Shown here: positions 476 through 64,000 of the stretch, piece after piece
Position numbering within the stretch: position 1 is the stretch's first letter
Layout: the number at the start of each line of letters is the position of its first letter
DNA from: an uncultured Candidatus Saccharibacteria bacterium
GTDB lineage: Bacteria; Patescibacteriota; Saccharimonadia; Saccharimonadales; JAGQNJ01
Direction of reading: 5' to 3'
Length of the DNA stretch: 64,000 nt
Assembly: GCA_964493895.1 (NCBI GenBank)
Contig: CAZBPY010000003.1
Span: 102,146-166,145, forward strand
Made by a program: the position numbers and the translations under genes
Notes under the pieces: model-generated
The model's database searches: none
What the model saw: the letters and a program-made list of their open reading frames with translations, nothing else
What the model was told of the DNA's origin: nothing

Positions 476-517
476 AGCAGGGGCTATTGTACCACGAAAA
501 ACAGATTGAAATAGGTG

Positions 518-1002
518 TTAAGATTTGGCCGAAGAAGCTGGAGACGATGATCCGCCAGCCTTTTTGTTGTACTCAGCTTTGCCAAAGGCCAGAATTGCGT
601 AACCGATAACCGATACAAAAATCAGTAACACAGCAAATATCGGGTCCTTGCCAAATTTCTTAGACAGCTCGATAGCAATGAGAACGTAAAGAATCAGTGC
701 AGCTATACCGGCGAAGGCTCCCAGAACTGGAATAGCCGTACCGATGCCAACGATTCCCCACCAACCTGGCTTGCCGGCAATTTCTGCCAATACCCAGCCA
801 TTGTAATTGGAATTAAAGCCTTCCAACCTTCGACGCCGGCTTTTTCAAAAACCTTCCACAGACAAATGACGTAAAAAATTAACAGCGGAATCAACACCAC
901 CATCATGGCCGCCATTGTTGCCAGCACGGCTGCTACCACCCCCTCGTCACTGGTTGATGTTGTTGTGTACGTGTATGTGGTCTGGGCTAATAAGTCCAAC
1001 AT
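518..1002 (-). pseudogene. Small membrane protein, DUF5684-like, split into two frames (ORFs 703-1002 and 518-826)
   Basis: The upstream ORF ends in LWKVFEKAGVEGWKALIPI. The downstream frame continues YNGWVLAEIAGKPGWWGIVG. Together they read as one conserved motif. The frames switch at ccaattacaat (about 800-810), consistent with a 1-nt indel. Confidence 0.6.
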
Positions 1003-1225
1003 ACTCCCTCCTTTGGTTAAGTGTTAGATCTAGTATACTCTTTAATTTTAAGCAAAAGCAATGGCTGGCTTGATTATTCATGCCCTCGGCCGCCGCGCAT
1101 CGAACAAGCAAAGTAAACCTTCATTTGTATACTAACCTCATGAAAAAGCCCCTTTAGTTCATAGAGGCTAGTGCATCATCTTGAACTAAAGACTATATTG
1201 GAGACAATCTATGAAGCTGTGCTAA

Positions 1226-1759
1226 CTAAATTAATTCGTATAGGCGAGACTTCGCAAATATGGGAAGCCGTTTCTTATAAACCATTCTAGAAACCTTTAG
1301 GCTCAATAATTTAGGCAGTTGCTCGAGGAGCTCCTTGATATCCTCTAGGTGTTTTAGTTGCTTGTGGTTCAAGCATGACTGCCAGCGCTCAATGGATATG
1401 AAGTCTAGCTTGTCAGCATCGCGAATAATATTGCCCTCGATCGTTGACGGCTTCATGCTCCATTTGTGAAAAACAATCGCATCGTATGCTCTCTGGCTTA
1501 TGATACTGCCAGAGCCTCTTTTTAGTAAGTCTTGCTTAAGCATGTTTGCGCTTATTTCTTCATGGCCTTCATCGCTAACTATTCTGCCAACATCATGCCA
1601 CCAAGCGCAAAGACGCAAGAATTCAATATTTTTATAGCTCAGTTCTTTTCCAATCAATGCGGCGTTCTCTGCTACACGCTGAGCATGCCCTATATCATGT
1701 GCGATATCATTAGTTTTTGATAACAGCCTTTTTGCCTCCTCAATAGATTCTTCAAACAC
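1226..1759 (-). CDS. HD-domain phosphohydrolase
   Basis: Contains HDIGH..., WWHDVGR and DADKLD motifs. GTG start. Confidence 0.7.
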   Translation of the reverse strand: MFEESIEEAKRLLSKTNDIAHDIGHAQRVAENAALIGKELSYKNIEFLRLCAWWHDVGRIVSDEGHEEISANMLKQDLLKRGSGSIISQRAYDAIVFHKWSMKPSTIEGNIIRDADKLDFISIERWQSCLNHKQLKHLEDIKELLEQLPKLLSLKVSRMVYKKRLPIFAKSRLYELI

Positions 1760-1910
1760 CCCATTATAATAACAAGGTTGAGGCTTTTATCCTTGTTTGG
1801 TGCAGTAGGGACACCAGAATTTGACTCGTTGGCATTTGAACGACTAATCGAATTCTGGAGGGTCGTAGTAGGTGCAATCTCTACTGAAATAGTAAACGAT
1901 AAGCCGTTTA

Positions 1911-2513
1911 TTACTTTGATTCGAGTTTACGAGTTGCCTCTAGCCAGTCTGGAGTCGGAATAAAGCGTATTTCTGGCCAACTGTCTATTTCTTCCTCAGT
2001 TACATCATAGATTGCCTGATATGCCGTTTCTACACTGCCATGTAACGCTGCTCCATAATCTAAATCAAGTACGTTAGCGGTTTCACGTAAAGCACTTTCA
2101 TCTTTTGCTTCGATCTCTACAAAGCTGGGTATCCAGGGCCATGTATCAAGCTCAATCTCTGTACTGCCAAGTTTCCAACTTTCGCGTTTGGTTTCCTGAA
2201 AAGAGTTCTGTTTCAGCCCAATGGATTTCAGAAGGGTGCGGGTAGCATTAAAGTCATCAACAACAACGGTCACCTCTTTGGTTCCGTGTAGCGTCCTGTC
2301 GTCGAGTTGTTTGTAGCTTAGGGTAATTTTGTCACCCTCATCTCTGACCCTAATCCAACCGCCAATTTTTTCTAGTCGTTTATCTTCATAGTCAAATACT
2401 GAACGAACCATAAGCCGCTCGGGGACAACAAGAACTGCTCCTGCTGAGGTAAGCTTTTTTCTCATCTCAGCGATATTAATATCTAGCCACTTAGCCTCTA
2501 TTTCTGTTTGCAT
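1911..2513 (-). CDS. CYTH-domain protein (class IV adenylyl cyclase / triphosphatase fold)
   Basis: Starts MQTEIEAKWL (the ExExK motif typical of CYTH). Start moved to ATG 2513 because the longer ORF overlaps the divergent neighbour. Confidence 0.65.
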   Translation of the reverse strand: MQTEIEAKWLDINIAEMRKKLTSAGAVLVVPERLMVRSVFDYEDKRLEKIGGWIRVRDEGDKITLSYKQLDDRTLHGTKEVTVVVDDFNATRTLLKSIGLKQNSFQETKRESWKLGSTEIELDTWPWIPSFVEIEAKDESALRETANVLDLDYGAALHGSVETAYQAIYDVTEEEIDSWPEIRFIPTPDWLEATRKLESK

Positions 2514-2628
2514 GGCTACAGTATAACAAAACACCTCTGACAAAACAGAGGTATGGAAAATGCTTATGCTTGGAGGAGCAAGGTGCAAACTATTGCAACT
2601 ATTTTACAGCGTAGCCATAATAAGATTT

Positions 2629-3039
2629 ATGTATGTAGTACCAGTTAAGATAGCAAAGTCAGAGATTGACGGTCATGGAGTTTTTGAAGAAGTGAACATA
2701 GCCAAAGGCACGGTCGTGTGGAAACACAAAGATGGTTATGATTTAACATTGACCACTGAGGAATATGAGTCGTCATCTGCTGAAAGGAAAAGTGAGTTAG
2801 AGAAGACGGCTTATCTATCGCCTTGGTCCGGATTATGGGTATTCCCTACTGGAAATGACCCTGCACAATATACAAATCATAGCCCGAATAATAATTTGTC
2901 CGTGGTTTATGATGAAAGCATTTCTTCCGAACCCTACTGTATTGCAAATAAAGACATTGAAGCCGGTGAAGAGCTTACTAACAATTATCACGAGTTTGAT
3001 AAACTCACGCAGCAAACAAAGCCCCTATGGGCAAAATAA
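2629..3039 (+). CDS. SET-domain protein (putative protein-lysine methyltransferase)
   Basis: Contains SEIDGHGVF, NHSPNNN (the NHS motif) and ELTNNY. Start set at ATG 2629 (MYVVPVKIAK). Confidence 0.65.
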   Translation: MYVVPVKIAKSEIDGHGVFEEVNIAKGTVVWKHKDGYDLTLTTEEYESSSAERKSELEKTAYLSPWSGLWVFPTGNDPAQYTNHSPNNNLSVVYDESISSEPYCIANKDIEAGEELTNNYHEFDKLTQQTKPLWAK

Positions 3040-3600: not shown

Positions 3601-3903
3601 TGGAGAGACTAGGCCTTACTGGCAAACCAAAATTAGGTTTGCCAACGTAACCCCTTTCGGGGCGGTGGGTGGGGAATGTCCACTGGACATTCCCGTTCAA
3701 GTCCCAAGACTGCCAAACAAAATACCCCGCACATGGGGGCACTTTATTTGGAGGACCAGGAGGGACTAGGTCACCTTTGGCGACCCCCGAACTTCTGCCT
3801 TGCAAGCATAGCTTGCAGATGAAGATTCGTTTCCGGAATGCCACTGGCATTCCTCACCCTCGACATTCTTTTGATATGTCGAGGATATGAACCCAGTTCT
3901 CCA
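3601..3903 (-). ncRNA. Structured ncRNA, class not assigned
   Basis: The ends pair (tggaga 3601-3606 with tctcca 3898-3903). The helix extends by G-U pairs that work only on the minus-strand transcript. At least 7 internal hairpins. Terminator just downstream. ORFs here look non-coding. Confidence 0.6.
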
Positions 3904-3904
3904 C

Positions 3905-3929
3905 GAAAAAATCCCACGCAAGGTGGGAT
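3905..3929 (-). terminator. Hairpin plus T-run after tRNA-Lys (terminator or processing hairpin)
   Basis: atcccac/gtgggat stem followed on the minus strand by TTTTTT. It abuts the 5' end of the ncRNA. Confidence 0.55.
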
Positions 3930-3936
3930 TCATTCG

Positions 3937-4013
3937 TGGAGGGCCATCTGGGACTCGAACCCAGGACACCCTGCTTAAGAGGCAGGTGCTCTAACCAGCT
4001 GAGCTAATGGCCC
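3937..4013 (-). tRNA. tRNA-Lys(CTT), CCA encoded
   Basis: Cloverleaf folded by hand. Acceptor gggccat/atggccc, anticodon loop ctCTTaa, T-loop ggttcgagtcc. Confidence 0.9.
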
Positions 4014-4077
4014 GTACTCCAACAGGGGGCTATTTTAACAGAGATGGCCACTGATGTAAATTAGTCCAACCCGGATA

Positions 4078-4560
4078 CTACGACGAACCTTTTCGCGTCC
4101 AGACCTGGAATGTGTAAGTGATACCGTTTTCAGTTATTGGCTGGCTTTCTGACTTCAGTTCAAATTTATCTTTGAACTTGGGGAAAAATTTAGTGCAGTT
4201 AAAGCTCCGCTGCAGCTGGGTCAAATATAATTCGTCGGCTAGGTCAATGGTGCTGGTAAACAATGCGGCTCCGCCTAGATTCCAAACATCACCGGATTGC
4301 TCCTGCAGGAACTGGCGAGCATCGAGAACCAGCTCAAAACCGTCGCGCAGCTCAACTGGTTCAAGATTTGCCACATAATTTACGCCGCCGGGATATGGCT
4401 TGCTAAGCTCCTTGTAGACGCCATACCCCATCAATAATGCGCCGGTACTGATTTTCTTGTGGTAATATTCTACATCACCTGGAATCTTACCTTGCCACGG
4501 AATACCGTGATCATCAGCTACCCCGCCGTCTTTATCAATTGCCGCAATCATCCGAATCAC
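4078..4560 (-). CDS. folA: Dihydrofolate reductase
   Basis: MIAAIDKDGG..HGIPW pattern. AGGAGG lies 6 nt upstream of GTG 4560. Confidence 0.85.
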   Translation of the reverse strand: MIRMIAAIDKDGGVADDHGIPWQGKIPGDVEYYHKKISTGALLMGYGVYKELSKPYPGGVNYVANLEPVELRDGFELVLDARQFLQEQSGDVWNLGGAALFTSTIDLADELYLTQLQRSFNCTKFFPKFKDKFELKSESQPITENGITYTFQVWTRKGSS

Positions 4561-5109
4561 TTAGCGCCTCCTGTGTGAGATTAATACAAAACTGGTTGTC
4601 AATAATATTAGGCCAGTCAGCCAACCAATTAATATTGTCTTCTTGAGCCGACCCAAATGGTAATCAGCCACTTGTCGTTTTTGGCCGATAACTACGATGC
4701 CTTTATCCGGTCCCATAGATGCGGCTACAGCGGCTACGTTAACACCCTCTTTTGGCTGCCACGAGAAATAGTCACGGCTAAACGCCATAGTGTTATCGAA
4801 AACATTTTCCGGAAGGGTTGGCGTTTGATCATCAATAACTGCCGACGAACTGATCAGATTTTTGTCCTGGTCGTAGTATGAAACAAAGGGATTGTGAGCA
4901 ATCTCCAAATTAACTTTGGTGGCCGGAGCTTCGGGCTGCTCGCCGGCCTCTATCTCAAAAGCACCTTGCCAAGCCTTGTTGACTGCTTCATGAGCTAGTG
5001 GGGCATACAGACTATGATCAAGGTTTATTTGGCTAACTTTGTAGACTACACCGAATATAAGAGTCAGTACCAGCACCGAAAACAGCCAGTGAACGCCATA
5101 CTTCTTCAC
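4561..5109 (-). CDS. Hypothetical membrane protein (N- and C-terminal TM helices)
   Basis: Long ORF with hydrophobic N-terminal and C-terminal segments. No recognisable motif. Confidence 0.5.
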   Translation of the reverse strand: MKKYGVHWLFSVLVLTLIFGVVYKVSQINLDHSLYAPLAHEAVNKAWQGAFEIEAGEQPEAPATKVNLEIAHNPFVSYYDQDKNLISSSAVIDDQTPTLPENVFDNTMAFSRDYFSWQPKEGVNVAAVAASMGPDKGIVVIGQKRQVADYHLGRLKKTILIGWLTGLILLTTSFVLISHRRR

Positions 5110-5204
5110 TTACCTAGTATAGCATTTGAATGTCACTCAATGGGATTGGTACAGCTTAGTTAACGAAGTCCAAACTGTTATTAGCAGGCTAGAGCCTGAT
5201 TACG

Positions 5205-6511
5205 CTATGTAGCTTTAGCTTCTGCCCATTCACCTACGCTATCAAGAACGGCTTGGTCTGGGCTAGTTGCTAACACAAGTGGTTGCGTATCGGTCAATCC
5301 TTTGTGCAGTTTTCTCAAAGTATCTAACGAGATAGTTTTCGCAAAATCTTCAACCTCGTCAAGAGCAACTTCATCTCTCTTAGAAAAAGTCAGAATGTCC
5401 CTAACCCTATCAGCAATTTGTGAAGGGTTACTTTGCATTACGTGGTCAACATCACGATGTAATGCGATTAGCACAGAATCAAAGACATTTTCTGGCAAAG
5501 GCCTATGCAAAACATCAGTGCGCAAAGTTTCAAGTCCCATAACTACGTCTTCGCCATTAAGGTTAGCTGTTGCAGTAAAATGTGACCAGTTTCTGTCACG
5601 CCCAAAGTTAGAATCAGACAGTCTAGCTATACTTGCATTTGCGCCATAGCAAAGTGCCAGTTCTCTACGTAAGCGATTATGTGCAGCTTTGGAAAGTATC
5701 ATACTGACAAGGTTGTAGCTAAGTTGTTCACGTGGCGATGAAGTTTCAGGTACGCCATAGCTAATACTTACAGAACTTTGGGCTGTTAGCGGTAAATCGA
5801 CTCGCTGTAACGAAGCGGTTAAATTGTCTGGGTTAAAGTCTTCAAACTCTACAAAAGCTGGCCGGTGTTCACCTTGCCCGCTGTATCCAGCCATTAAAGT
5901 TTCAGCAAACTCACGCTGTCTTTCAACTGGTTCAGAAGAGCATAAAACCAGAACTGCATTTCCAAGTCTATAGTGGCGTTCGTGAAAACCCCTCAATGCT
6001 TCTGGAGTCATACGCTGAACGTCTTCAATAGTCCCGCCTATTGGACGTGCATATAGTTCGCCTCTAGTTGCCTTAGCGTGAGCAAGTCTTATATAAAGTA
6101 CGGGTCCGAAGCATACCCTCTTAGTTCATCAACAATGGGCTTGCGCTCACCTTCAAGAGCTTCGGTTGTTAGAGCAGGCCTAAGAGCAAGCTGACTTACA
6201 AAAAATCCTACCGATTCAAGCTCGTAACCGTCTGCGATATAAGTTGTAAACATTTGGTTGGTAAAAGCATTTTGGGCTAATCCTTTTTCTTCTGCATAAC
6301 GGTGAACATCTGCCTCATCAGGCATAGCTTCCGTACCTTGAAATGTTACGTGTTCAAGGAAGTGTGCCGCTCCGTATGCGTCTGGTGTTTCATGTACCGA
6401 GCCAGCACCAACGGTAAGTCTTGCTGAATGAGTGCGAAAATGGGACAAGTTAACAAAAGCAGCTCTCAAGCCACTATCCAGCTGTTCAACCTGTATGCTT
6501 TCTACCGACAT
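5205..6511 (-). pseudogene. M16 (pitrilysin/insulinase) family zinc peptidase, interrupted by a frameshift
   Basis: The N-terminal ORF (6089-6511) has HFLEHVTFQGT (HxxEH) and ends DPYFI*. The C-terminal frame is open upstream of its first Met as YIRLAHAKATRGELYARPIGGT. The frames switch in tactttatataag at about 6085-6097. Confidence 0.65.
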
Positions 6512-6720: not shown

Positions 6721-6749
6721 AAACTTCAGGTGGTAATTATACCAGATTG

Positions 6750-7280
6750 TTAGCCGTCTTTTGGCTTATCCAGCTGTTTTGGTGCCTGGCCAGTTTTCTC
6801 CAGCATTTCAGTCAGAAGCTTTTGGACTCGCTTGGCGTGATCAAAGCTCATGCCAATCCGACTGATGGTGGCCGGCTGAGAATTATTAGCGTTTTGTAAG
6901 AAATCAAAAACTACACCGTTGGGTGTGGCTGAAATGTTAACTGAATCGGAATATAGAATACGGTTGTCGAACGGGATGACCATAAGGGTTTGTTTAATAA
7001 TCTGTTCATCCATTGCCGATAGGCCTGATCCAACCGTCTGACTGCGAGCATAATTGGCCTGTTCCAAAACTGATCGGGCGTCTTTTTCCTCGACATCAAG
7101 GTGGCTAATCAATAACAGTAAGATGTCTTCGCTAGGCAATAGCTGGCCGCGTTCAATCTGTTTTAGCTGCTCGGGTTCGATTTCGACCGCTCCGGAAACC
7201 TCGGCCAGGCTTTCGTGTGCCCGTTGCCGCCATTTTCGAAGGTGTTCCCCAATGTTTTTATACGGATAATTCTCGCCCAT
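6750..7280 (-). CDS. XRE-family HTH protein with DUF3467-like C-terminal domain
   Basis: IGEHLRKWRQRAHESLAEVSGAVEIEPEQLKQIERG is an HTH_3 pattern. Start set at ATG 7280, because the longer ORF would run over the murB start. Confidence 0.6.
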   Translation of the reverse strand: MGENYPYKNIGEHLRKWRQRAHESLAEVSGAVEIEPEQLKQIERGQLLPSEDILLLLISHLDVEEKDARSVLEQANYARSQTVGSGLSAMDEQIIKQTLMVIPFDNRILYSDSVNISATPNGVVFDFLQNANNSQPATISRIGMSFDHAKRVQKLLTEMLEKTGQAPKQLDKPKDG

Positions 7281-7328
7281 GTACCCCCATGTTATCGAGG
7301 CTGACAGCAGGATGCAAGTATAAGCATG

Positions 7329-7334
7329 TATACT
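7329..7334 (+). promoter_or_regulatory. -10 box TATACT, 7 nt before the murB ATG (leaderless-type)
   Basis: Read directly from the sequence. No SD between the box and the ATG. Confidence 0.45.
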
Positions 7335-7341
7335 AAGGGCA

Positions 7342-8367
7342 ATGCAGATTACAGAGAACGAGCCGTTAGCTAAGTACTCCACTATGCGCCTCGGTGGCCA
7401 AGCGCGCTTTTTTGCCCGGGCCAAATCAAAAGGCGACATCAAATCGGCTTGGGAGTGGGCAAAAAAGCGCGGCCTGCCGATGATAGTCATCGGCGACGGC
7501 AGCAACATTGTCTGGCGCGATGAAGGCTATCACGGACTGGTCGTCGTCAACGAAGTTAAGGGATTTGATCTGGATAAACAACCGGACGGTTCGGCCCTGG
7601 TAACAATCGGAGCCGGCGAGGAATGGGATAAAGTTGTCGATCGCACTGTACGAGCCGGCTATAGCGGCATCGAACAACTGTCACTAATTCCCGGCAAAAC
7701 CGGTGCTACCCCTGTTCAAAACGTCGGCGCCTACGGCCGCGAGATCAAGGATGTCTTAGTTTCTGTGGAAGCCTTTGACAGCCATGGTGAGAAATTTGTG
7801 ACTGTGCCCAATTCCGATTGCGGCTTTCGTTACCGTGACAGCCGCTTTAAAAGCGAAGACCATGGCCGATTTTTCATCACTTCAATAACCCTGCACCTAA
7901 TCGATGCTCCGCCCGAACCACCCTTCTACCACTCTGTTAAGGACTATCTGGAACAGCACAAGATCACCCAACCGACTGCCGCTGATGTCCGTCAAGCTGT
8001 TATTACAGTCCGCACCAAGAAGCTGCCCGATCCTGATGTTGTTGCTAACAACGGTTCGTTTTTTGCTAATCCAATTGTCAACCACAAAGTTTTTGCTACC
8101 CTAAAACATCACTATCCCGACATTGTGTCCTGGCCAGTCGAGCACGAGCAGGTTAAAATTTCAGCCGCTTGGCTGATTGAAAAGGCCGGTTTCAAGGATT
8201 TCCATGACCGTCACACCGGCATGGCCACTTGGGATAAGCAGCCTCTGGTTTTGATCAACGAATCGGCCAGTTCAACGGCTGACGCCTTGGCTTTTCGAGA
8301 CAAAATCATCCATGCCGTCGAGAATCGTTTCGGCATCACCCTAAAACAAGAGCCCGAGCTAATTTAA
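7342..8367 (+). CDS. murB: UDP-N-acetylenolpyruvoylglucosamine reductase
   Basis: N-terminus LAKYSTMRLGGQARFF and overall MurB pattern. Confidence 0.9.
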   Translation: MQITENEPLAKYSTMRLGGQARFFARAKSKGDIKSAWEWAKKRGLPMIVIGDGSNIVWRDEGYHGLVVVNEVKGFDLDKQPDGSALVTIGAGEEWDKVVDRTVRAGYSGIEQLSLIPGKTGATPVQNVGAYGREIKDVLVSVEAFDSHGEKFVTVPNSDCGFRYRDSRFKSEDHGRFFITSITLHLIDAPPEPPFYHSVKDYLEQHKITQPTAADVRQAVITVRTKKLPDPDVVANNGSFFANPIVNHKVFATLKHHYPDIVSWPVEHEQVKISAAWLIEKAGFKDFHDRHTGMATWDKQPLVLINESASSTADALAFRDKIIHAVENRFGITLKQEPELI

Positions 8368-55538: not shown

Positions 55539-57404
55539 TTAATACAAAGCGGCGGCTCGGGGCATCCGCGAACCTTTGAGTATTTCCAAAACTTCGTCGG
55601 CTTCAACAGTTTCTTTCTTTATCAAAGCGTTTTTAAGCTCTTCTAGTTTGTCCATATTGGCTTTGATGACTTCGCGGGCCCGTTTGGCGGCTTCAGAAAT
55701 CAGTGATTCAATTTCAGCATCAATCAACTTAGCTGTCTCTTCAGAATAACGGCGATCGTGCATGATTTTGTCCATCATCATGCCTTCATCAGTCTGAAAG
55801 ACTTGGTCGCGAAGTTTCTTACCCATACCCTGTTCGGTAATCATATCGCGGGCCAGTTCCGAAGCTTTTTGCAAATCGTTGCCGGCTCCAGTTGTCACCC
55901 GATCAGATCCGTAAACTACTTCTTCGGCCACTCGGCCTCCAAGCATTCGAGCCAGTACGTCTTTAAATTCAATGACACTGTGATAACTTTTGTCTTCCGG
56001 CGGGATGAACCAAGTGACACCGCCAGTGCCACCGCGCGGAATAATGGTAACTTTGTGAACCATGTCACTGTCCGGCAGGACATGGCCGACGATGGCATGG
56101 CCGGCCTCATGGTAGGCCGTTAGTTCTTTCTCTTTTTGGGTCATGACTTTGGATTTGCGCTCGGGTCCAATGGCCACTTTTTCAAAAGCCGCCGTGACGT
56201 CGGACTGGCTAATTTCTTTGCGGTTATGGCGAGCTGCAATAATCGCTGATTCGTTGACGATGTTAGCCAGGTCAGCCCCGGATGTGCCGGCCGTTTTGGC
56301 CGCCAAGGCATCAAGGTCGACTGACTTGGCGAACGGCTTTTTGGCGGCATGGACTTGCAAAATCGCCAAGCGATCCTTGCGGTCGGGCAAAGCAATGTTT
56401 ACCCGGCGGTCAAAACGGCCGGGCCGCAGCAATGCCGGGTCCAAAACATCAGCCCGGTTGGTGGCGGCCAAGACGATCACATTTTGGCCCTGCTCAAACC
56501 CGTCCATCTCAACCAGAATTTGATTCAAAGTCTGCTCTCGCTCGTCATGGCCGCCACCCATACCGCTACCGCGCTTGCGGCCCACGGCATCAATTTCGTC
56601 AACAAAAATAATACACGGAGCATTTTTCTTAGCTTTGGCAAACAAATCGCGCACCCTGGAGGCTCCGACACCGACAAACATTTCTACGAATTCCGAACCG
56701 GAAATACTGAAGAATGGCACTCCGGCCTCGCCGGCCACCGCCCGAGCTAACATAGTCTTACCGGTTCCCGGCGGCCCCACCAATAAGACGCCTTTTGGAA
56801 TCTTGGCGCCGACAGCTTCAAATTTCTTGGGAAACTTCAAAAACTCAACGACTTCTTCCAGGTCTTGCTTGGCTTCATCAGTGCCGGCAATATCCTTAAA
56901 AACCACCTTGTCTTTTTCATTGCCGTACAGCCGAGCTTTGGATTTACCAAAACTCATGGCCTGGTTGCCCTGTCCCTGAGCACTACGCAACATGAAGAAC
57001 AAAAATCCGGTTATCAACAGCACCGGCAGTATCGACAGACCAACATTCAACCAGGTGTTGCCGCTAGTGTTGGCCGGTTTGTTAATAATCTCGACGTCGC
57101 GATTAGTTAGCCCCTGCTCGTAAATACTTGAACCGGACTCTTTGCGCGACTCTTCTGACGGCTGATCTTCGCCCTTTTTGGTAATCGTCAGCTCATCACC
57201 GGTGACGGTAATGCTGCGAATCTGACCTTCGTTGGCTCGGTTAATAACCTCGTTGAAGGGAACTTCTTTGAGATCACTTGGCTGCCGATAAGCCGCGAAG
57301 ACAATCAGTCCGATCAGAATAATCAAAGCCACAAAGCCAAAGCCGCGAAAACCGCGCCGCTTTCCGTAGTCGTTACCACCCTTTTTAAACGGTTTCTTAT
57401 CCAT
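55539..57404 (-). CDS. ftsH: ATP-dependent zinc metalloprotease FtsH
   Basis: [13 protein letters not shown], the SRH region and HEAGHA motifs. Confidence 0.98.
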
Positions 57405-58314
57405 GTAGTTCCCTATTATACCGAAAGCCAGCCGCTTTGCCAGCCAGGCTAATCATGTCTTGGTCAATTATCAAGTCCAGGTCACGACTGACCGACACCT
57501 GCTTTCCGGGAGCCAGAGTCTTTACCCCAACCACTAAATAGTGAACCCGTTTGCGATCAACTTCTTTAACTCCGCTGTCAGCCAGCCAAGCTGCCATCAC
57601 CTCGCAAGCCACAATGTAGGGCAACATAATCAACTTTTGCCTCTGTAAACTTTCACCGACCTTCAATTGTTTTAACTGCCTTTTAATCGCCAAGTCCAAA
57701 GTTTCGTTCCGCTGCCTTGCCGACTCATAGATCGTTGCTAGTTTTTGCCGCTGTTTTCGGCTCAGTTTCGGCAGCACTTTCCGCCTAATCCAATTACGGG
57801 TGTACTTCTCGTCAACATTAGTACTGTCCTCTCGCCACTGCAAGCCTCGCCGCCTGGCCTCGTTAATAATCTCTGACTTGGTGTATCCCAACAGCGGCCG
57901 ATAGATCCTATCAGTCGACTTCAAGGAGCTCATGCCTTTACGTCTGGTTCCCCTTAATGTGTTTAGAGCCAAGGTTTCCACGGCATCATCCTGATGGTGA
58001 GCTGTCATCACCCCTGTCGCTCCATATTTTTTGCGAATTTGTTGCAAATATTTGTACCTGGCCCGCCTAGCTTCCTCCTCGCTAGCCTGTGATCCCAGTT
58101 TTCCTTCACCAAACTCGAATTTTAGTCCATATTTCTGCGACAGTGTCGCAACAAATTGTCTGTCCTCTGTTGAATCTGATCTTATCCCATGGTCAAAGTG
58201 CGCCACAATTAATTCTAACTTCGGATTTTCGGCTAGAAGATCCAACAAAACCGCCGAATCAACCCCACCGGACACGGCTACTACATATTTTCCTGGCTTA
58301 ACTTTCAACTTCAC
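57397..58314 (-). CDS. tilS: tRNA(Ile)-lysidine synthetase
   Basis: VAVSGGVDS PP-loop. 8-nt overlap with ftsH. Confidence 0.9.
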   Translation of the reverse strand: MKLKVKPGKYVVAVSGGVDSAVLLDLLAENPKLELIVAHFDHGIRSDSTEDRQFVATLSQKYGLKFEFGEGKLGSQASEEEARRARYKYLQQIRKKYGATGVMTAHHQDDAVETLALNTLRGTRRKGMSSLKSTDRIYRPLLGYTKSEIINEARRRGLQWREDSTNVDEKYTRNWIRRKVLPKLSRKQRQKLATIYESARQRNETLDLAIKRQLKQLKVGESLQRQKLIMLPYIVACEVMAAWLADSGVKEVDRKRVHYLVVGVKTLAPGKQVSVSRDLDLIIDQDMISLAGKAAGFRYNRELHG

Positions 58315-59142: not shown

Positions 59143-59219
59143 GTCGGTGTAGCTCAGTTGGTTAGAGCGCAGGACTCATAAGCCTGAGGTCGTAGGTTCA
59201 ATTCCTACCACCGACACCA
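59143..59219 (+). tRNA. tRNA with CAT anticodon (elongator Met or lysidine-modified Ile2), CCA encoded
   Basis: Acceptor gtcggtg/caccgac fully paired, so not an initiator. Anticodon loop ctCATaa. Confidence 0.85.
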
Positions 59220-59259: not shown

Positions 59260-59409
59260 TTAACCGGAGCTGCGGCCGCCCTTGCGCCCAGCGCTGCGAG
59301 CCCGGTCCGGGTCATTTTTGAAATTACCGCTGCTGGCTCGTCCGCCCATAGCCGCAATTTCCCGCACCCGCTTCTTACTCATTGATGCAAATCCTCTTTT
59401 TCCTGGCAT
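59260..59409 (-). CDS. KGG-repeat stress-induced small protein (49 aa)
   Basis: Below the track's 60-aa cutoff. Hand translation: MPGKRGFASMSKKRVREIAAMGGRASSGNFKNDPDRARSAGRKGGRSSG. SD aaggaggg lies 4 nt upstream. Confidence 0.7.
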   Translation of the reverse strand: MPGKRGFASMSKKRVREIAAMGGRASSGNFKNDPDRARSAGRKGGRSSG

Positions 59410-59736: not shown

Positions 59737-59811
59737 CGCGGGGTGGAGCAGCGGCAGCTCGCGTGGCTCATAACCACGAGGTCGCAGGTTCGAGTCCTGC
59801 CCCCGCAACCA
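59737..59811 (+). tRNA. Initiator tRNA-fMet(CAT), CCA encoded
   Basis: cgcgggg...ccccgcaacca with a C1-A72 mismatch. Close to the E. coli initiator sequence as I recall it. Confidence 0.9.
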
Positions 59812-59864: not shown

Positions 59865-59889
59865 ACTTCTTACAAGCTCTCCCCCGTTC

Positions 59890-59906
59890 GCTAGTTCGAG
59901 TCTAGC
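59890..59906 (+). other. Orphan tRNA T-arm-like hairpin resembling the 3' end of tRNA-fMet
   Basis: gctag-ttcgagt-ctagc followed by cccc. Compare ttcgagtcctgcccccgca in the tRNA. An inverted partial copy ggctcgaacc lies at 59926-59935. Confidence 0.5.
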
Positions 59907-60198
59907 CCCCTTTAGGATAATTAACGGCTCGAACCGCCCTGTTTGTTGTTAAAGCGACTCTCATCTTCTTGGGTGGTTCCATCTGTGTCCACTCCTTATA
60001 TAGGGATTGGACACCTCAGAACCTGACCGGGTTCCATGACCCCGACAGTTTGAGGCTAGACTTGCTAAGCATAAGTATTTGTGATATTGTATTGGACATG
60101 AAAGCAATTTCACTATCAGCACAGAACTTTTTTATGGTCTCAACAACAGGAGGCCTTGCTAACTTTACGCAATAAACTTAAGCAAACAACACAATCAC

Positions 60199-60221
60199 AA
60201 GCCTCCGAACGGAGGCTTTTT
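60199..60221 (+). terminator. Rho-independent terminator 22 nt upstream of the PheRS-like gene
   Basis: aagcctcc-gaac-ggaggctt followed by TTTTT. Confidence 0.75.
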
Positions 60222-60243
60222 AAATGTAACCAGGAGAAACACC

Positions 60244-61380
60244 ATGAAAATGTACATAAAACCATTAACCAAACAAAAGCTAGCTGAGTATCTGGCATTG
60301 CCAGATTTAACCCAGCCCGGGCAAGAGCATGCGGTGGGCATGCTCTATCAGAGAATTGAAAACCAAATGAAAGCTTCACATCCTGAGTCGGATGTCCAGG
60401 TGCATCGGAAGAACCCGATCGTATTGGTGACCGACAACTATGACCGATTGCTGATTAGTTCCGATAATATTAGTCGTTCCTCGACATATACGCACTACGT
60501 AGATCAAACACATATATTGCAAACGCATACATCGGCTCAGATTCCAGCGTTACTGAAAGCATTGGCTAAAGATTCATCTTGGGACGATGTAGTATTGCTC
60601 CTACCTGGGCTTGCCTATCGGCGCGATGTAACAGATAAGAAGCATGTTGGCCAAGTGCATATGCTGGAGATGTGGCGAATCGTCAGAAATGGCAAACGCA
60701 AAAAGATCGTTAAAGATGATCTTTTGAAGATTGTGCATGATGTAGCGAATGTAGCAGCACCCGGATGGCGTCTACGAATCATTGACTCCCCTCACCCCTA
60801 CACACGAGGCGGCATTGAAGTCAACGCAGTTCAGGGCGACCGAGATATCGAAATCTTGGAATGTGGCCTCATTAACGACCAGATTTTGAAGAATGCCGGC
60901 TTAAACCCTAAAGAATATTCGGGGTGGGCGCTCGGTATGGGACTCGATCGTTTAGTAATGACCCTGAAAGATATTCCAGATATTCGTTATCTGCGCTCCA
61001 AAAACCCTAAGATTGCGGCGCAAATGAAAGATCTAGAACTTTACAAGGAAGTTTCGAACCAGCCAGCCATACAACGCGACATGTCGTATAGCGTACCTCA
61101 GGAGTATGTTGAGGAAGACGTGAGTGAGGAAATTCGTGAATCGCTCGGCAGTTATGCAGATGTGCTTGAAAGTGTTGAGATTCTAGGCGAAACACTATAT
61201 GCGAAGCTGCCCGACATTGCTCGAACAAAGTTAGGTATAAAGCCAGGCCAGAAAAACATACTAGTACGTGTTACGCTCAGGCATCTTGAGAAAACACTAA
61301 CAAAACAGGACGCAAACAATATGTATAAACGCATATATAGCCATGTAAATTATGGCTCAGCGGGCTATTTGTGGTGGTGA
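60244..61380 (+). CDS. Single-chain PheRS-like class II aminoacyl-tRNA synthetase core fused to a C-terminal FDX-ACB-like domain
   Basis: SD aggag. Motif 2-like LAYRRDVTDKKHVGQVHMLEMW. Motif 3-like GWALGMGLDRLVMTLKDIPDIR. The C-terminal roughly 95 aa begin PAIQRDMSYSVP and include LVRVTLRHLEKTLTKQD. Confidence 0.7.
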   Translation: MKMYIKPLTKQKLAEYLALPDLTQPGQEHAVGMLYQRIENQMKASHPESDVQVHRKNPIVLVTDNYDRLLISSDNISRSSTYTHYVDQTHILQTHTSAQIPALLKALAKDSSWDDVVLLLPGLAYRRDVTDKKHVGQVHMLEMWRIVRNGKRKKIVKDDLLKIVHDVANVAAPGWRLRIIDSPHPYTRGGIEVNAVQGDRDIEILECGLINDQILKNAGLNPKEYSGWALGMGLDRLVMTLKDIPDIRYLRSKNPKIAAQMKDLELYKEVSNQPAIQRDMSYSVPQEYVEEDVSEEIRESLGSYADVLESVEILGETLYAKLPDIARTKLGIKPGQKNILVRVTLRHLEKTLTKQDANNMYKRIYSHVNYGSAGYLWW

Positions 61381-61386
61381 GGAGGT

Positions 61387-62286
61387 CTAGCTAATGTTTT
61401 CTGACTCCCACTCTAACCATTCATCGACGACTTTGGGTAACTCTTTTGTCTGCATCAACGGTTTGCCACGAGAAGACCGAGCATAGCCCAGTTTCCAGAC
61501 TACATTCCTAATATCTTCGATGATCACAAAGGCGGCTACAGCTTGTTCATCTTCTTGGCTAAACTCCCTAACAGAGCGGTAGCCTTCAAGCCATGTCTTG
61601 AATCTATCCTCTGCAGCTTTGAGTACACCCCACGGCTCTGCAGCTCGCCAAGACTTAGCCGCACTATCAAAATCAAAAACAACCAACTTACCATCATGCA
61701 AGTGCACGTTATCAAGCGTTAAATCGTTATGGATAATTCCATAGTTGAGCTTTGGATTACTTACAATCTTTCGCATACGCTCGGTCAGATCAAATACTCT
61801 TTGCCACTCGCCACTTTCTTCTAAAGGTTTCTTCATCCGTTTAAGCTGATCGTCGAAAAGTTCGTGTTTATCAAACTCTTCACGAGGTAAGTCTGACGTA
61901 AACGTATCGGCAGCATTGTGTATGCGAGCAGCCGCTTCTCCAATTAAAGTATAGGTACTAAGTTCTGGTTTGGGTTTTTCGCCTGGTGCCCACTCAAACA
62001 AAACAGCGACTCGATCTTGTTCATCAATACTAAACGTCTGTAAGTAGTTACCGTCTGTACCAGCAACAAGTTGAGCGACTGGAGCACCGTTTTCAATGAG
62101 GTGCAGTGTTAGATCAACCTCCCACTGTATTTCTCCAGACTTTCGGGCAGTTGCGTTATACACCTTCAAGGCAAAGTGCCCGTCAGAAGTCACCACTTCA
62201 TACGAATCGTTAGCCAGAGTATTAAGGTTCTTACACTTTGGGTTTGCTAAACCATAGCTCTTGGTTAGTTGTTCTTCAATTGTCAT
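61387..62286 (-). CDS. APH/choline-kinase-fold phosphotransferase
   Basis: IIHNDLTLDNV (HxDxxxxN) and VVFDFDSA (DxD) motifs. Confidence 0.75.
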   Translation of the reverse strand: MTIEEQLTKSYGLANPKCKNLNTLANDSYEVVTSDGHFALKVYNATARKSGEIQWEVDLTLHLIENGAPVAQLVAGTDGNYLQTFSIDEQDRVAVLFEWAPGEKPKPELSTYTLIGEAAARIHNAADTFTSDLPREEFDKHELFDDQLKRMKKPLEESGEWQRVFDLTERMRKIVSNPKLNYGIIHNDLTLDNVHLHDGKLVVFDFDSAAKSWRAAEPWGVLKAAEDRFKTWLEGYRSVREFSQEDEQAVAAFVIIEDIRNVVWKLGYARSSRGKPLMQTKELPKVVDEWLEWESENIS

Positions 62287-62343
62287 GTACCAATAATACA
62301 GTAAAGCGTTAAGTGCTTGCTTTCGCGCCCGAATTACCTCTGT

Positions 62344-62349
62344 TATACT
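62344..62349 (+). promoter_or_regulatory. -10 box TATACT, 6 nt before ATG 62356
   Basis: gtTATACTtaaatcATG. No SD. Confidence 0.45.
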
Positions 62350-62355
62350 TAAATC

Positions 62356-62880
62356 ATGAGTGATGTTGTCGTAGGATATCCGGATATATCAAAATCTGAT
62401 TACGATTGGATCCAAAATATTCGTAAGGTACATGATAAGCAATTTAGTTTGCTCCAACCACACTTCACCTTTGTGTTCCCCACAGATAAATTACCAATTG
62501 ATGAGCTTGCGAGTCATGTCGAAGTAAGGGTTAGTGGCACGCCAGTAGTAGAATTTAAGTTGACTAAGGCGGTTGTAATAGAAGATGCTTCCAAAGCCTC
62601 TTCGTATATCTTCCTAGTGCCATCAGAAGGCAGTGACGAAATCAATAAATTACACGACGAACTTTACAAAGATAAATTAGCTAGTGAACTACGACTAGAT
62701 CTTCCTTTTATGCCCCATGTCACCATTGGAACGGGTAGTCATGAGAGTATGGAAGATCTTGCTAAAAGCCTAAATGAGCAGGGAATAAACATCGCTGGCG
62801 TCATCAGTGCTTTATCTGTTGCTAGCTATGACGGTCAGCATGTGACTGAATTTCGACGACTTGAATTGGCTAGTCAGTAG
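62356..62880 (+). CDS. 2H phosphoesterase superfamily protein (LigT / 2'-5' RNA ligase-like)
   Basis: Two HxT motifs: PHFTFVF and PHVTIGT. Confidence 0.65.
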   Translation: MSDVVVGYPDISKSDYDWIQNIRKVHDKQFSLLQPHFTFVFPTDKLPIDELASHVEVRVSGTPVVEFKLTKAVVIEDASKASSYIFLVPSEGSDEINKLHDELYKDKLASELRLDLPFMPHVTIGTGSHESMEDLAKSLNEQGINIAGVISALSVASYDGQHVTEFRRLELASQ

Positions 62881-62899
62881 GTTCAGAGCTTTAATAGGC

Positions 62900-62905
62900 T
62901 ATAAT
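62900..62905 (+). promoter_or_regulatory. -10 box TATAAT, 6 nt before ATG 62912
   Basis: ggcTATAATttaactATG. No SD. Confidence 0.45.
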
Positions 62906-62911
62906 TTAACT

Positions 62912-63571
62912 ATGAAACTCTTACTCACCTCAGCAGGCATCGTTAACGATTCTATCGCCAAAGCTCTGTTTGATATGGTTGGCAAGAAGCCAGAGGAACT
63001 GAAAGTTGCTTTTATTCCCACCGCCGCAAATGTAGAAGAGGGCAATAAGGTTGACTGGTTCTTTCGTCAGTACGAAGATTTGCGGCGAATTGGCATAACC
63101 TGGGTAGACATGGTTGATTTTGCCGATCAAGATGTAGACTGGAAAGCCCGGCTCGACGAGTGCGACGTCTTATATCTGACGGGTGGCAACACTTTCTATT
63201 TACTCGATCAGATCAGGAACCAGGGATTTGGTGATTATCTAGAGAAAGTATTGGATTCAAAGGCATATGTTGGTGGCAGTGCCAGCTCCATAACCATGAC
63301 ACCAAATATAGAAGTGGCTGCGATACCTCCGGGCGACCCCAACCTACCGGGGCTTACTGATTTAACAGGACTGAGTTATGTTGACTTTGAAATTGAGCCG
63401 CACTGTGACGAGCCACGGTTTGATACCGTCAAACAGTATTCTAAAGACCATAACAGTAAGATCTATGCTATAGACGACCAAACTGCTATTAGCGTCATAA
63501 ACGGTGAAGTATCGGTAGTTTCTGAAGGCAAGTGGGCTCTGTACGACAAAGGCTCTGCAGCTGAGGCCTAA
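62912..63571 (+). CDS. Peptidase S51 (dipeptidase E-like)
   Basis: MKLLLTSAG, LYLTGGNTFYLL and GGSASS motifs. Start taken at ATG 62912. Confidence 0.7.
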   Translation: MKLLLTSAGIVNDSIAKALFDMVGKKPEELKVAFIPTAANVEEGNKVDWFFRQYEDLRRIGITWVDMVDFADQDVDWKARLDECDVLYLTGGNTFYLLDQIRNQGFGDYLEKVLDSKAYVGGSASSITMTPNIEVAAIPPGDPNLPGLTDLTGLSYVDFEIEPHCDEPRFDTVKQYSKDHNSKIYAIDDQTAISVINGEVSVVSEGKWALYDKGSAAEA

Positions 63572-64000
63572 GCTAGCTGCAGTTGTCCATCTTTGATCTG
63601 GATCTCGTTCTTTATGCCTTTAGCTAACCACTGTTTGTCTTTTAGGTCACCGCCGTCTACAACGTATTCCGCATACTCTAATAAAGGCTTCTTGAGCCTA
63701 CCTTCAGATTTGTAGTGTTGGGCGATCACATAGTGCTTCTCAACTTTTGCTCGGAGGTCGTTAGAAAGCTTTATCTTCTCAAAGTTCTCGCCAATAAACT
63801 GCTTGAGCAGCTGTATGAGCGCCGTCTCATTCACATATTTCTCGGGACAGTGCAGGTTTATCTTTTTAGTACACCGGTAATACACATGTCGATTAAATTC
63901 GCCGCTTTTAAGTTTCTTAAACTTTTCCTCAGCTGTTACTTCGCCTCCACAGTGTCCACATTTTAACAGCCCACGAAATGCAAACTGTTTCGTGCCCCAT
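63568..64000 (-). CDS. Large serine recombinase, C-terminal part (N-terminus off window)
   Basis: The frame stays open upstream of the track's GTG to the window edge: FRGLLKCGHCGGEVTAEEKF...HVYYRCTKKINLHCPEKYV. This is the recombinase zinc-ribbon pattern followed by a coiled coil. Confidence 0.7.
   Translation of the reverse strand, partial: WGTKQFAFRGLLKCGHCGGEVTAEEKFKKLKSGEFNRHVYYRCTKKINLHCPEKYVNETALIQLLKQFIGENFEKIKLSNDLRAKVEKHYVIAQHYKSEGRLKKPLLEYAEYVVDGGDLKDKQWLAKGIKNEIQIKDGQLQLA

Follow-up and report, generated by a model that had tools for sequence, protein, structure and literature searches.

The window analyzed here is a stretch of 64,000 nucleotides from contig CAZBPY010000003.1 of an uncultured Candidatus Saccharibacteria bacterium. 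An open reading frame of 378 amino acids at positions 60244 to 61380 on the forward strand encodes a protein related to phenylalanyl-tRNA synthetase (PheRS). A prediction made from the sequence alone, which we refer to as the original prediction, had likened this protein to the monomeric PheRS of mitochondria and placed its gene in an accessory region, downstream of a putative attenuator. The protein is a member of the SrmL family, which is catalogued by name and to which its curators have assigned no function. We conclude with high confidence that it represents an accessory member of this family with an attenuator that contains codons for phenylalanine (Phe).

Domain architecture and predicted fold

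The features identified in the gene, all on the forward strand, were the following:

60244-61380 (+), SrmL coding sequence, a single-chain paralog of the class IIc aminoacyl-tRNA synthetases (NF051887, Pfam, AlphaFold2 [AF2] model and FARS2 match)
60352-61023 (+), catalytic core, amino acids 37-260 (Pfam tRNA-synt_2d)
amino acids 95-97 (+), HTS motif (sequence)
60607-60675 (+), motif 2, amino acids 122-144, containing R126 (sequence)
60793-60804 (+), HPYT, amino acids 184-187 (sequence)
60919-60993 (+), motif 3, amino acids 226-250, containing R236 (sequence)
61054-61347 (+), FDX-ACB anticodon-binding domain of the PheRS B8 type, amino acids 271-368 (Pfam PF03147, FARS2 alignment and AF2)

The motif 2, motif 3 and C-terminal sequences quoted in the original prediction were all present in the reading frame, and the two Pfam models that it had named both matched the protein. 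The match to tRNA-synt_2d covered amino acids 37 to 260 with an E-value of 7.5e-26, and the match to FDX-ACB (PF03147) covered amino acids 271 to 368 with an E-value of 1.6e-8 and a score of 35.3 bits, the cutoff being 31.1. The PF02912 domain, which forms the N-terminal part of bacterial PheS, was not found in SrmL by the Pfam scan. The closest solved proteins were those of human mitochondrial PheRS (FARS2), with E-values of about 1e-27, while the matches to bacterial PheS had E-values of 1e-17 or weaker.

The AF2 model, for which an alignment of 15 sequences was used as input, had a pLDDT of 93.3 and a pTM of 0.89. When superposed on FARS2 in the closed state (3cmq and 5mgh), the model aligned over its full length with TMq values of 0.78 to 0.79 and a root-mean-square deviation of 3.4 Å over approximately 400 columns. 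Bacterial PheS chains superposed on the core of the model only, with a TMq of about 0.54. The FDX-ACB region could be aligned with the domain of FARS2 that binds the anticodon, and the pLDDT values in this region were higher than 90. The architecture of SrmL is a PheS-type core and a PheT-type FDX-ACB domain in one chain, with no editing domain. The single-chain organization suggested previously was thereby confirmed at a level far beyond chance, with FARS2 as the best match in both sequence and structure.

The SrmL family and its distribution

The protein matched the NCBIfam model NF051887, named "PheS-related mystery ligase SrmL", with a score of 417.4 bits against a cutoff of 300 (E-value 4.3e-125), and the match extended from position 2 to position 347 of the 349 positions in the profile. 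NF051887 is an equivalog model, and RefSeq applies the SrmL name to the homologs in Arthrobacter. The scores to the models for mitochondrial PheRS (TIGR00469, pheS_mito) and bacterial PheS (TIGR00468, pheS) were 167.2 and 83.8 bits, respectively, which is below the corresponding cutoffs of 258.35 and 237.45 bits. These scores, in combination with altered residues at the positions that bind the Phe ring, do not support the protein as a true PheRS of the mitochondrial type (PheRS-M) or a true PheS by the curated cutoffs, the families to which the original prediction had pointed. The family signature was tested as HPYT, xHxxD/ExW and ECG, and the window protein contained SPHPYT, VHMLEMW and ILECGLI as well as GWALGMGLDR; it was placed within an SrmL clade that had 100/100 bootstrap support.

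An exhaustive search against 1.84 billion representatives yielded 123 clusters (50% identity) with E-values below 1e-30 and 617 clusters with E-values below 1e-10. More than 120 clusters were 66% to 74% identical to the window protein; all of them were two-domain proteins of about 375 amino acids from metagenomes and metagenome-assembled genomes (MAGs), and the matches to genomes among these relatives were to Candidatus Saccharibacteria / Saccharimonadales. For the retrieval of loci we used the alignment of 15 sequences, since an alignment of 62 sequences was too divergent for this purpose.

Outside this group, full-length SrmL homologs with about 40% identity were identified in genome assemblies of Arthrobacter, Pseudarthrobacter and Actinoplanes. 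In 2 Arthrobacter loci (L022/L023:9273-11158), the SrmL gene was divergently oriented to a gene for a MerR/TipAS regulator of the drug-sensing type. Plasmids of Azotobacter chroococcum carried homologs amid insertion sequence elements, an HNH endonuclease and a VapC/Phd pair. The homolog on plasmid pGnB68 of Glutamicibacter nicotianae (L018:8004-9122) adjoined a gene for the Cmx chloramphenicol exporter, and a truncated copy was located between erm(X) and tet(65) on plasmid FRC0402_p2 of Corynebacterium diphtheriae (L019:8001-8630). SrmL was also encoded by a 635-kb record annotated as "uncultured phage" and by 6 IMG/VR contigs of 145 to 578 kb. These phage copies contained the SrmL signature, whereas the matches in giant viruses contained the canonical mitochondrial signature. 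The accessory and mobile character proposed for the gene is borne out by its presence on actinobacterial and Azotobacter plasmids, on phage contigs and in the genomes of free-living bacteria.

One locus, L053, contained 2 convergent SrmL copies, at 3686-4954 (+) and 5017-6144 (-). A subclade outside the Saccharibacteria (L054, L055, L057, L058, L063, L064, L068, L074, L078, L097 and L098) had neighbors in varied combinations, including a radical-SAM/SPASM protein similar to AhbD/NirJ (with scores below the cutoffs), a class II paralog similar to LysRS (238 bits, cutoff 468), an open reading frame of about 86 amino acids immediately upstream of SrmL, and an Amidohydro_2 protein. This set of neighbors looks like a biosynthetic cluster.

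Literature searches in the library available, which covered SrmL, monomeric bacterial PheRS, pheS in Saccharibacteria and PheRS in huge phages, returned nothing on the SrmL family, and AARS Online lists PheRS-M solely as mitochondrial-like. The existence of several groups of bacterial single-chain proteins that resemble PheRS-M appears to be new.

A leader peptide with Phe codons precedes the SrmL gene

The region upstream of SrmL contained the following features:

60062-60090 (+), promoter-like element, with the -35 box TTGCTA at 60062-60067, a 17-nt spacer and the extended -10 box TGaTATTGT at 60082-60090 (read from the sequence)
60098-60175 (+), open reading frame of 25 codons for a leader peptide, MKAISLSAQNFFMVSTTGGLANFTQ, followed by a stop codon (sequence; homologous or analogous leaders in related loci)
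60136-60155 (+), segment 1, GGTCTC at 60136-60141, paired with segment 2, GGAGGCC at 60149-60155 (minimum free energy [MFE] fold, centroid fold and consensus helix)
60149-60206 (+), antiterminator, segment 2, GGAGGCCTTG at 60149-60158, paired with segment 3, CAAGCCTCC at 60198-60206 (duplex energy and covariation)
60199-60221 (+), intrinsic terminator, an 8-bp GC-rich hairpin at 60199-60218, with a stem formed by AAGCCTCC and GGAGGCTT and the loop GAAC, followed by a T-tract (sequence and folding)
60232-60236 (+), Shine-Dalgarno sequence AGGAG, 7 nt before the ATG (sequence; conserved in alignment A3)

The extended -10 box, TGTGATATAAT, was conserved at the equivalent position in the related loci (alignment A3), and the version in the window was TGTGATATTGT at 60080-60090. 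The promoter element was not reported by a simple scan for the sigma-70 consensus at 60062-60090. The -35 box TTGCTA and the extended -10 box end only a few bases before the ATG of the leader peptide. We infer that transcription starts at or just before this codon, and that the mRNA for the leader peptide is leaderless. The reading frame contains 3 Phe codons, of which 2 are in tandem (TTTTTT at 60128-60133) and one is located at 60167-60169.

Immediately 3' of the tandem Phe codons, segments 1 and 2 form a hairpin that was present both in the MFE fold and in the centroid fold, with a z-score of -2.9 for the 124-nt leader. Across the related loci, this pairing was recovered as a consensus helix of 7 bp with compensatory changes. 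The alternative pairing between segments 2 and 3 had a duplex energy of -13.0 kcal/mol in the window, a value that was reached by none of 300 shuffled sequences. In the individual genomes, the energies ranged from -10.7 to -14.8 kcal/mol, as compared to -4 to -8 kcal/mol for the shuffled sequences. The 2 segments covaried, such that genomes of the GGAGG type (the window and L027) and genomes of the GGGGG type paired well within their own class only. For 2 of 10 sequences (L024 and L006), MFE folding gave the 2:3 pairing.

The terminator ends 22 nt before the start codon of SrmL, too close for a promoter to fit in between. It was missed by the consensus scan, in which the T-count rule starts after the stem as extended by A-T pairs. 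A hairpin and a T-tract were found at the equivalent position, ahead of the Shine-Dalgarno sequence where there was one, in about 14 of 32 distinct related loci. The stems varied in sequence yet stayed complementary, although the upstream genes differed. Each related locus with a hairpin and a T-tract also encoded a short leader peptide with tandem Phe codons upstream of it, as exemplified by MKATSTPVQNFFMTSSLGGLAGFTK in L001, MVYISQASFFFFTASVGGIACFAK in L006, AADFFFADFMPAATPRTY (the C-terminal part) in L013 and MKTCSHNLFFNFILNPSRG in L037. The copy in the 635-kb phage record was preceded by the leader MNTNTTFNFFFSHKMV with its stop codon and then by a terminator of its own, the 3' arm of which is mimicked by the end of the leader reading frame.

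To put numbers on this association, the upstream regions of SrmL in 33 distinct loci of the Saccharibacteria clade were compared with the upstream regions of other genes in the same loci. A small open reading frame containing FF was present in 26 of the 33 SrmL upstream regions and in 55 of 356 control regions (15%; Fisher's exact test, p = 7e-14), and at least 4 Phe residues within 9 residues were encoded in 14 of the 33 and 8 of the 356 regions, respectively (p = 1e-11), with the reservation that the SrmL loci share ancestry and that the independent events are fewer than these counts. The leaders were of at least 3 non-homologous designs, including the version in the huge phage and a class of peptides that end in SFFFFGFFAA before the stop codon. 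The latter class was located about 70 to 180 nt upstream of SrmL in L032, L035, L038, L041, L042, L036, L045, L009, L005 and L040. Here, the stop codon was placed in the loop of a GCUGC/GCAGC hairpin, with a long-range UUUGGUU/AACCAAA pairing and a hairpin that contains the Shine-Dalgarno sequence further downstream, which suggests a different attenuator design that is possibly translational.

None of the leader families in Rfam matched the leader in the window, and neither a T-box nor any other riboswitch was detected in it at E-values of 1 or less; in 39 other loci, no T-box or riboswitch was found upstream of SrmL at the gathering thresholds. A search in the window for other genes controlled by Phe leaders, in which a crude filter was used, returned only noise from within genes. 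The attenuator that had been considered putative has the elements of a classical leader-peptide attenuator, with tandem Phe codons, alternative 1:2, 2:3 and 3:4 hairpins and a U-tract, and the Shine-Dalgarno sequence of SrmL was located as predicted.

SrmL and tRNA-Phe genes in huge-phage contigs

In a 415-kb IMG/VR contig (L110:6723-8323), the SrmL gene at 7001-8083 was located within an array of 17 tRNA genes, and the nearest tRNA gene on each side was a gene for tRNA-Phe(GAA), at 6723-6797 and 8249-8323. Under random placement of the 17 tRNA genes, the 2 tRNA-Phe genes would be the nearest neighbors on both sides with a probability of about 0.7%. A related contig of 578 kb (L114:5148-8086) had a tRNA-Phe gene approximately 110 nt upstream of SrmL in an array of 24 tRNA genes, while L109 contained an array of 20 tRNA genes with no tRNA-Phe gene in view. 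In these contigs, which are classified as phage in IMG/VR, the SrmL genes were situated in dense arrays, with 17 to 24 tRNA genes in 7 kb.

SrmL is very probably an accessory paralog

The cultured Saccharibacterium Southlakia epibionticum ML1 has a pheS gene of 1,041 bp (SEML1_0572; PF01409 and PF02912) and a pheT gene of 2,562 bp (SEML1_0562) with B3/4, B5 and FDX-ACB domains, both of which were essential by Tn-seq; its proteome table contains PF01409 once and PF03147 once, and no SrmL (PMC10633639 supplements). Saccharibacteria thus use a normal (alpha-beta)2 PheRS, and at least one of them does without SrmL. Since S. epibionticum has essential pheS and pheT genes and no SrmL, and since SrmL is found in free-living genomes, plasmids and phages, SrmL is very probably an accessory paralog rather than the housekeeping PheRS of the lineage. 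Likewise, it very probably coexists with canonical, essential pheS and pheT genes in the genome from which the window was taken.

Active site and phylogeny

R126 (the arginine of motif 2), R236 (that of motif 3) and G208 were invariant across 62 diverse full-length relatives, and because of this the adenylate chemistry of SrmL looks intact; the catalytic residues of motifs 2 and 3 noted in the original prediction are retained. One of the 62 representatives also matched NCBIfam models for chorismate mutase / isochorismate lyase (best E-value 1e-16); this member is none of P0124, P0142 and P0249. The HTS motif, which binds the alpha-amino acid, was kept by most members of the family, the Saccharibacteria clade among them. 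T187 and A229, which were invariant among 15 SrmL-type sequences, are the equivalents of T251 and A294 in E. coli PheS, positions that are altered in pheS alleles with relaxed specificity. Their retention would favor an unsubstituted phenyl ring as the substrate. Among 121 clade sequences with 66% to 74% identity, 108 of the 378 columns were invariant, which indicates strong purifying selection on SrmL in this clade, as judged from the alignment.

The residues that surround the ring differed between the groups. The sequences of the proven PheRS type, namely the mitochondrial representatives, the giant-virus copies and 3 bacterial single-chain proteins, had FPFTxPS, FHQxEG and GWAFG, whereas most SrmL-type sequences had HPYTxxG, PHQxDxW and GLAxG, and a minority of divergent SrmL-type sequences held neither signature cleanly. 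Within the window clade, SPHPYT, VHMLEMW and GWALG were fixed in at least 116 of 121 sequences, and the change from Gln to Met (VHMLEMW compared to PHQxDxW) was specific to the Saccharibacteria clade. In bacterial and mitochondrial PheRS, the substrate ring is sandwiched by 2 phenylalanines (ttPhe-alpha-258 and 260), which form an edge-to-face aromatic network that recognizes it; the human cytosolic enzyme, with Asn and Tyr in their place, is nevertheless a true PheRS (PMC3275996). The idea that the substitutions in the pocket alone prove a new substrate was rejected for this reason. The SrmL pocket appears to be remodeled in a manner that would still permit Phe as the substrate, given that the cytosolic enzyme with Asn and Tyr remains a PheRS.

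A neighbor-joining tree was inferred from 195 columns of the core with 5 PheS sequences as the outgroup, and the order among the 3 single-chain groups was left unresolved. SrmL was monophyletic with 100/100 bootstrap support, and the Saccharibacteria clade was nested inside it with equally high support (100/100). PheS was separated from all of the single-chain forms (99/100). The group of bacterial single-chain proteins with a canonical pocket was supported by 98/100, and the group of mitochondrial and giant-virus proteins by 82/100.

Genomic neighborhood in the window

The features that flank SrmL and its leader in the window were the following:

59143-59219 (+), tRNA-Met(CAT), second upstream copy (ARAGORN; Rfam tRNA)
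59737-59811 (+), tRNA-Met(CAT), directly upstream (ARAGORN; Rfam tRNA)
59885-59909 (+), fragment similar to the 3' half of a tRNA, with the T-arm GCTAG-TTCGAGT-CTAGC followed by CCCC (by eye, in comparison with the 3' half of tRNA-Met)
61387-62286 (-), APH-family phosphotransferase, convergent with SrmL and with 6 nt between the stop codons (Pfam APH, E-value 4.5e-23)
62356-62880 (+), 2H phosphoesterase of the 2'-5' RNA ligase superfamily (domain search)
62861-63571 (+), peptidase S51 (domain search)
63568-64000 (-), 3' part of a gene for a large serine recombinase (zinc-ribbon region), with the frame open to the window edge (tblastn and frame check)

The 2 tRNA-Met genes had Rfam scores of 62 and 74 bits, and they probably mark the integration site of the segment that carries SrmL. 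The T-arm-like fragment at about 59885-59909 was not detected by Infernal at E-values of 1 or less; to judge from its letters, it may have been left by an integration event in a tRNA gene. The recombinase at the edge of the window was 34% identical to residues 294 to 354 of a recombinase in L002 with Resolvase, Recombinase and Zn_ribbon_recom domains. The GC content of the segment from 60001 to 64000 was 0.41 to 0.47, as compared to the window mean of 0.475; judged as a mark of a genomic island, the GC content was 3 to 6 points lower. No att repeats were found in the window, and the right end of the candidate island is located beyond it. The SrmL region fits an integrated island, of which the genes for the 2H phosphoesterase and the S51 peptidase are probable cargo. 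The view that this is an AT-richer segment bounded by tRNA fragments and a recombinase therefore holds in part: the serine recombinase is indeed there and the GC content is indeed lower, but only modestly so, and the tRNA-Met genes are intact, with the T-arm-like fragment recognized by eye only.

No protein neighbor of SrmL was conserved across the loci of the Saccharibacteria clade, and the APH gene adjoined SrmL in the genome of the window alone. For lack of such conservation, the APH kinase, the 2H phosphoesterase and the S51 peptidase were rejected as functional partners. A tRNA gene was located within 3 kb of SrmL in 14 of 44 clade sources, with 12 different amino-acid identities, and a gene for a large serine recombinase was located within 6 kb in 4 of the 44.

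A 40-amino-acid KGG-repeat stress protein, too short to be included in the lists of open reading frames, is encoded between the 2 tRNA-Met(CAT) genes, at 59260-59382 (-) (Pfam KGG, E-value 2e-14), and tilS, the gene for lysidine synthetase, is located at 57397-58314 (-), less than 1 kb from the 2 tRNA genes with a CAT anticodon. One of these could be the tRNA-Ile2 substrate of TilS instead of a tRNA-Met. In a Saccharibacteria MAG (L027:11244-11966, +), a 240-amino-acid protein with a match to the AlaRS-type tRNA-synt_2c model is encoded about 110 nt after SrmL, and a TyrRS gene was observed 5 to 7 kb upstream of SrmL in L024-L027.

Comparison with known synthetases and attenuators

SrmL and mitochondrial PheRS (FARS2, PheRS-M) have in common the single chain, the PheS-type core with an FDX-ACB domain, the absence of an editing domain and a homologous N-terminal helix motif. 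However, SrmL has HPYT in place of FPFT, VHMLE in place of FHQLE and GWALG in place of GWAFG, it forms a separate clade (100/100) that is carried by bacteria, plasmids and phages, and its compartment very probably contains another PheRS. The fold of the core and the chemistry of motifs 2 and 3 are shared with bacterial PheS, and the anticodon-binding domain is homologous to the B8 domain of PheT, but SrmL consists of one chain as opposed to 4 subunits and is without the B3/B4 editing site.

A third comparison concerns the bacterial single-chain proteins with a canonical pocket (P0216, P0249 and the protein encoded by the second open reading frame in L073), which share the N-terminal "LALPDLT" motif and the core with SrmL. 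P0216 and the L073 protein also share the one-chain architecture with FDX-ACB, although their matches to this domain are much stronger. These proteins keep F-P-[FY]-T, FHQxDG and GWAFG, form a clade of their own (98/100) and score 221 to 255 bits to the SrmL model, for which the cutoff is 300. The gene for P0216 is followed after 3 nt by a gene for a CCA-adding enzyme (canonical-pocket proteins at L119:807-3439 and L120:8001-9197). P0249 contains no recognizable FDX-ACB domain, and its approximately 95 C-terminal residues have no domain assignment.

In enterobacteria, pheST is preceded by a Phe-rich leader peptide, pheM, and a terminator, and the attenuation mechanism is established; the annotation of the Salmonella locus places pheM upstream of pheS-pheT. 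The logic of the SrmL leader is the same, with Phe codons in a leader peptide followed by a terminator, while its sequence and RNA are unrelated to those of pheM. Bacillus subtilis contains back-up synthetase genes, thrZ and tyrZ, which are sensed by T-boxes and silent until the charging of the cognate tRNA drops. By analogy, SrmL may serve the same amino acid as the housekeeping synthetase, as a second gene that is induced by uncharged tRNA, but thrZ and tyrZ have a T-box and encode enzymes of normal architecture, whereas SrmL has a leader-peptide sensor, a different architecture and a different pocket.

Proposed role and alternative explanations

We propose, with a probability of roughly 0.58, that SrmL is an auxiliary, editing-free PheRS that is induced when Phe-tRNA-Phe is scarce. 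In this model, the promoter would drive transcription of the 25-codon leader peptide with its tandem Phe codons. When Phe-tRNA-Phe is plentiful, the ribosome would run through the leader, the 1:2 hairpin and the 3:4 terminator would form, and transcription would stop 22 nt before the start of SrmL. When Phe-tRNA-Phe is scarce, the ribosome would stall on the Phe codons, cover segment 1 and melt the 1:2 hairpin, and the liberated segment 2 would pair with segment 3 to form the antiterminator, so that SrmL is transcribed. SrmL would then activate Phe with ATP and load it onto tRNA-Phe when the charging by the housekeeping enzyme falls short, whether from scarcity of Phe or from inhibition of or damage to PheST. 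We infer that the attenuator works as described, with tRNA-Phe as the acceptor and Phe as the amino acid, and have moderate confidence that SrmL charges tRNA-Phe with Phe. Induction under a shortage of Phe-tRNA-Phe would suit an epibiont whose amino acids must come from its host.

Several observations weigh against this proposal. With a simulated stalled ribosome, MFE folding still kept the terminator in most sequences, and the switch would for this reason have to be kinetic. Kinetic switching is the behavior of classical attenuators. A phmmer search of the 64-kb window and of 118 related loci (1.18 Mb) found no pheS or pheT genes, although samples of about 20 kb from genomes of about 1 Mb are expected to miss them. 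The association of SrmL with tRNA-Phe genes is known from one putative phage lineage only. Most SrmL-type sequences have His and Tyr as the equivalents of ttPhe-alpha-258 and 260, and the substrate could differ from Phe. SrmL moreover forms a long-stemmed clade that is distinct from all of the proven PheRS groups, as a functional shift would look. In L073, SrmL is convergent with the gene for a second single-chain protein (the pair is located at 85-1488 (+) and 1593-2738 (-)) that has a canonical Phe pocket and a strong FDX-ACB match, and that scores just under the SrmL and pheS_mito cutoffs. Finally, the non-Saccharibacteria subclade described above has a radical-SAM/SPASM enzyme and a LysRS-like paralog as neighbors, which may mean that at least part of the family acts outside translation.

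The last 4 of these observations also form the basis of the main rival to the back-up PheRS, namely that SrmL is a neofunctionalized ligase, which we consider unlikely. Such an enzyme would have kept the adenylate chemistry and tRNA binding, but would load another aromatic or a non-proteinogenic amino acid onto tRNA-Phe or another acceptor, either in a specialized pathway or to take the place of Phe at its codons once Phe is exhausted. Most SrmL-type sequences carry substitutions at the residues that bind the ring (HPYT for FPFT, PHQxDxW for FHQxEG and GLAxG for GFAFG), the SrmL sequences form a monophyletic clade on a long branch, and the curators at NCBI chose the name "mystery ligase" rather than PheRS. 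The subclade with radical-SAM/SPASM, LysRS-like and amidohydrolase neighbors and the pairing of SrmL with a canonical-pocket single-chain paralog in L073 point in the same direction. On the other hand, cytosolic PheRS tolerates similar substitutions in the pocket, and both the back-wall residues T187 and A229, which limit substituents on the ring, and the HTS motif for binding of the alpha-amino acid are kept. Furthermore, the window gene and most of the Saccharibacteria loci have no biosynthetic partner, and the Phe-codon attenuator ties expression to the supply of Phe-tRNA-Phe. Where such attenuators are known, the genes under their control serve to restore the supply.

A special case of the back-up model is that SrmL is a PheRS insensitive to an inhibitor or a toxin, and that it serves as a resistance determinant with the attenuator as the inducer once charging collapses. 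Selection would come from a natural inhibitor of PheRS, from an antimetabolite of Phe, or from a toxin or defense system that disables PheST or tRNA-Phe. The location of the pGnB68 homolog beside the Cmx exporter, of the partial copy between erm(X) and tet(65) on the C. diphtheriae plasmid, and of the Arthrobacter copy opposite a MerR/TipAS regulator would agree with this, but the drug-related neighbors are not conserved, no resistance gene adjoins SrmL in the window, and adjacency on resistance plasmids may reflect hitch-hiking. A remodeled pocket could exclude an inhibitor, and huge phages carry SrmL together with tRNA-Phe genes, as would be expected if the host attacks translation; yet literature searches gave no natural product that targets PheRS and is relevant to these habitats. 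We regard this special case as quite unlikely.

A more speculative and rather improbable scenario is that SrmL, once turned on by stalling at Phe codons, loads another, more available amino acid onto tRNA-Phe by means of its remodeled His/Tyr/Met pocket, which would amount to a programmed and starvation-induced reassignment of Phe codons that is carried between bacteria, plasmids and huge phages. Compatible with this scenario, a mobile single-chain lineage in bacteria and phages could have been the source of the mitochondrial PheRS architecture.

That SrmL instead is the ordinary housekeeping PheRS of a lineage with reduced genomes, where it has replaced pheS and pheT, as the original prediction had also considered, is very improbable: a small genome might favor a compact enzyme, neither pheS nor pheT was seen in the window or the fetched loci, and the attenuator alone does not exclude it since the housekeeping pheST of E. 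coli is itself controlled by a Phe leader, but S. epibionticum ML1 has essential canonical pheS and pheT genes and single PF01409 and PF03147 proteins, many carriers of SrmL are free-living bacteria with large genomes and others are plasmids and phages, the surroundings of the gene vary and in some cases include a recombinase, and the pocket is non-canonical.

Implications

Since the SrmL family already has a name, the gene does not found a new one. The apparent novelty lies in the regulatory evidence for a link between SrmL and the supply of Phe-tRNA-Phe, and in the recurrence of SrmL on plasmids and, next to tRNA-Phe genes, in huge phages. The Phe-codon attenuator, the tRNA-Phe genes that flank SrmL in one huge-phage lineage and the reliance on PheST of a cultured relative without SrmL lead to the hypothesis of an inducible, editing-free and portable PheRS. 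If this is true, bacteria and phages would possess a one-chain PheRS design that was previously regarded as mitochondrial, and the origin of mitochondrial PheRS would be open to re-examination with real bacterial relatives. Antibacterials directed against PheRS could then face a mobile bypass enzyme. If the substrate is not Phe, the SrmL family would exemplify regulated mischarging of tRNA in nature. For the host-dependent epibionts, which are auxotrophic for amino acids, an auxiliary PheRS of this kind would mean that they have a dedicated response to Phe shortage.

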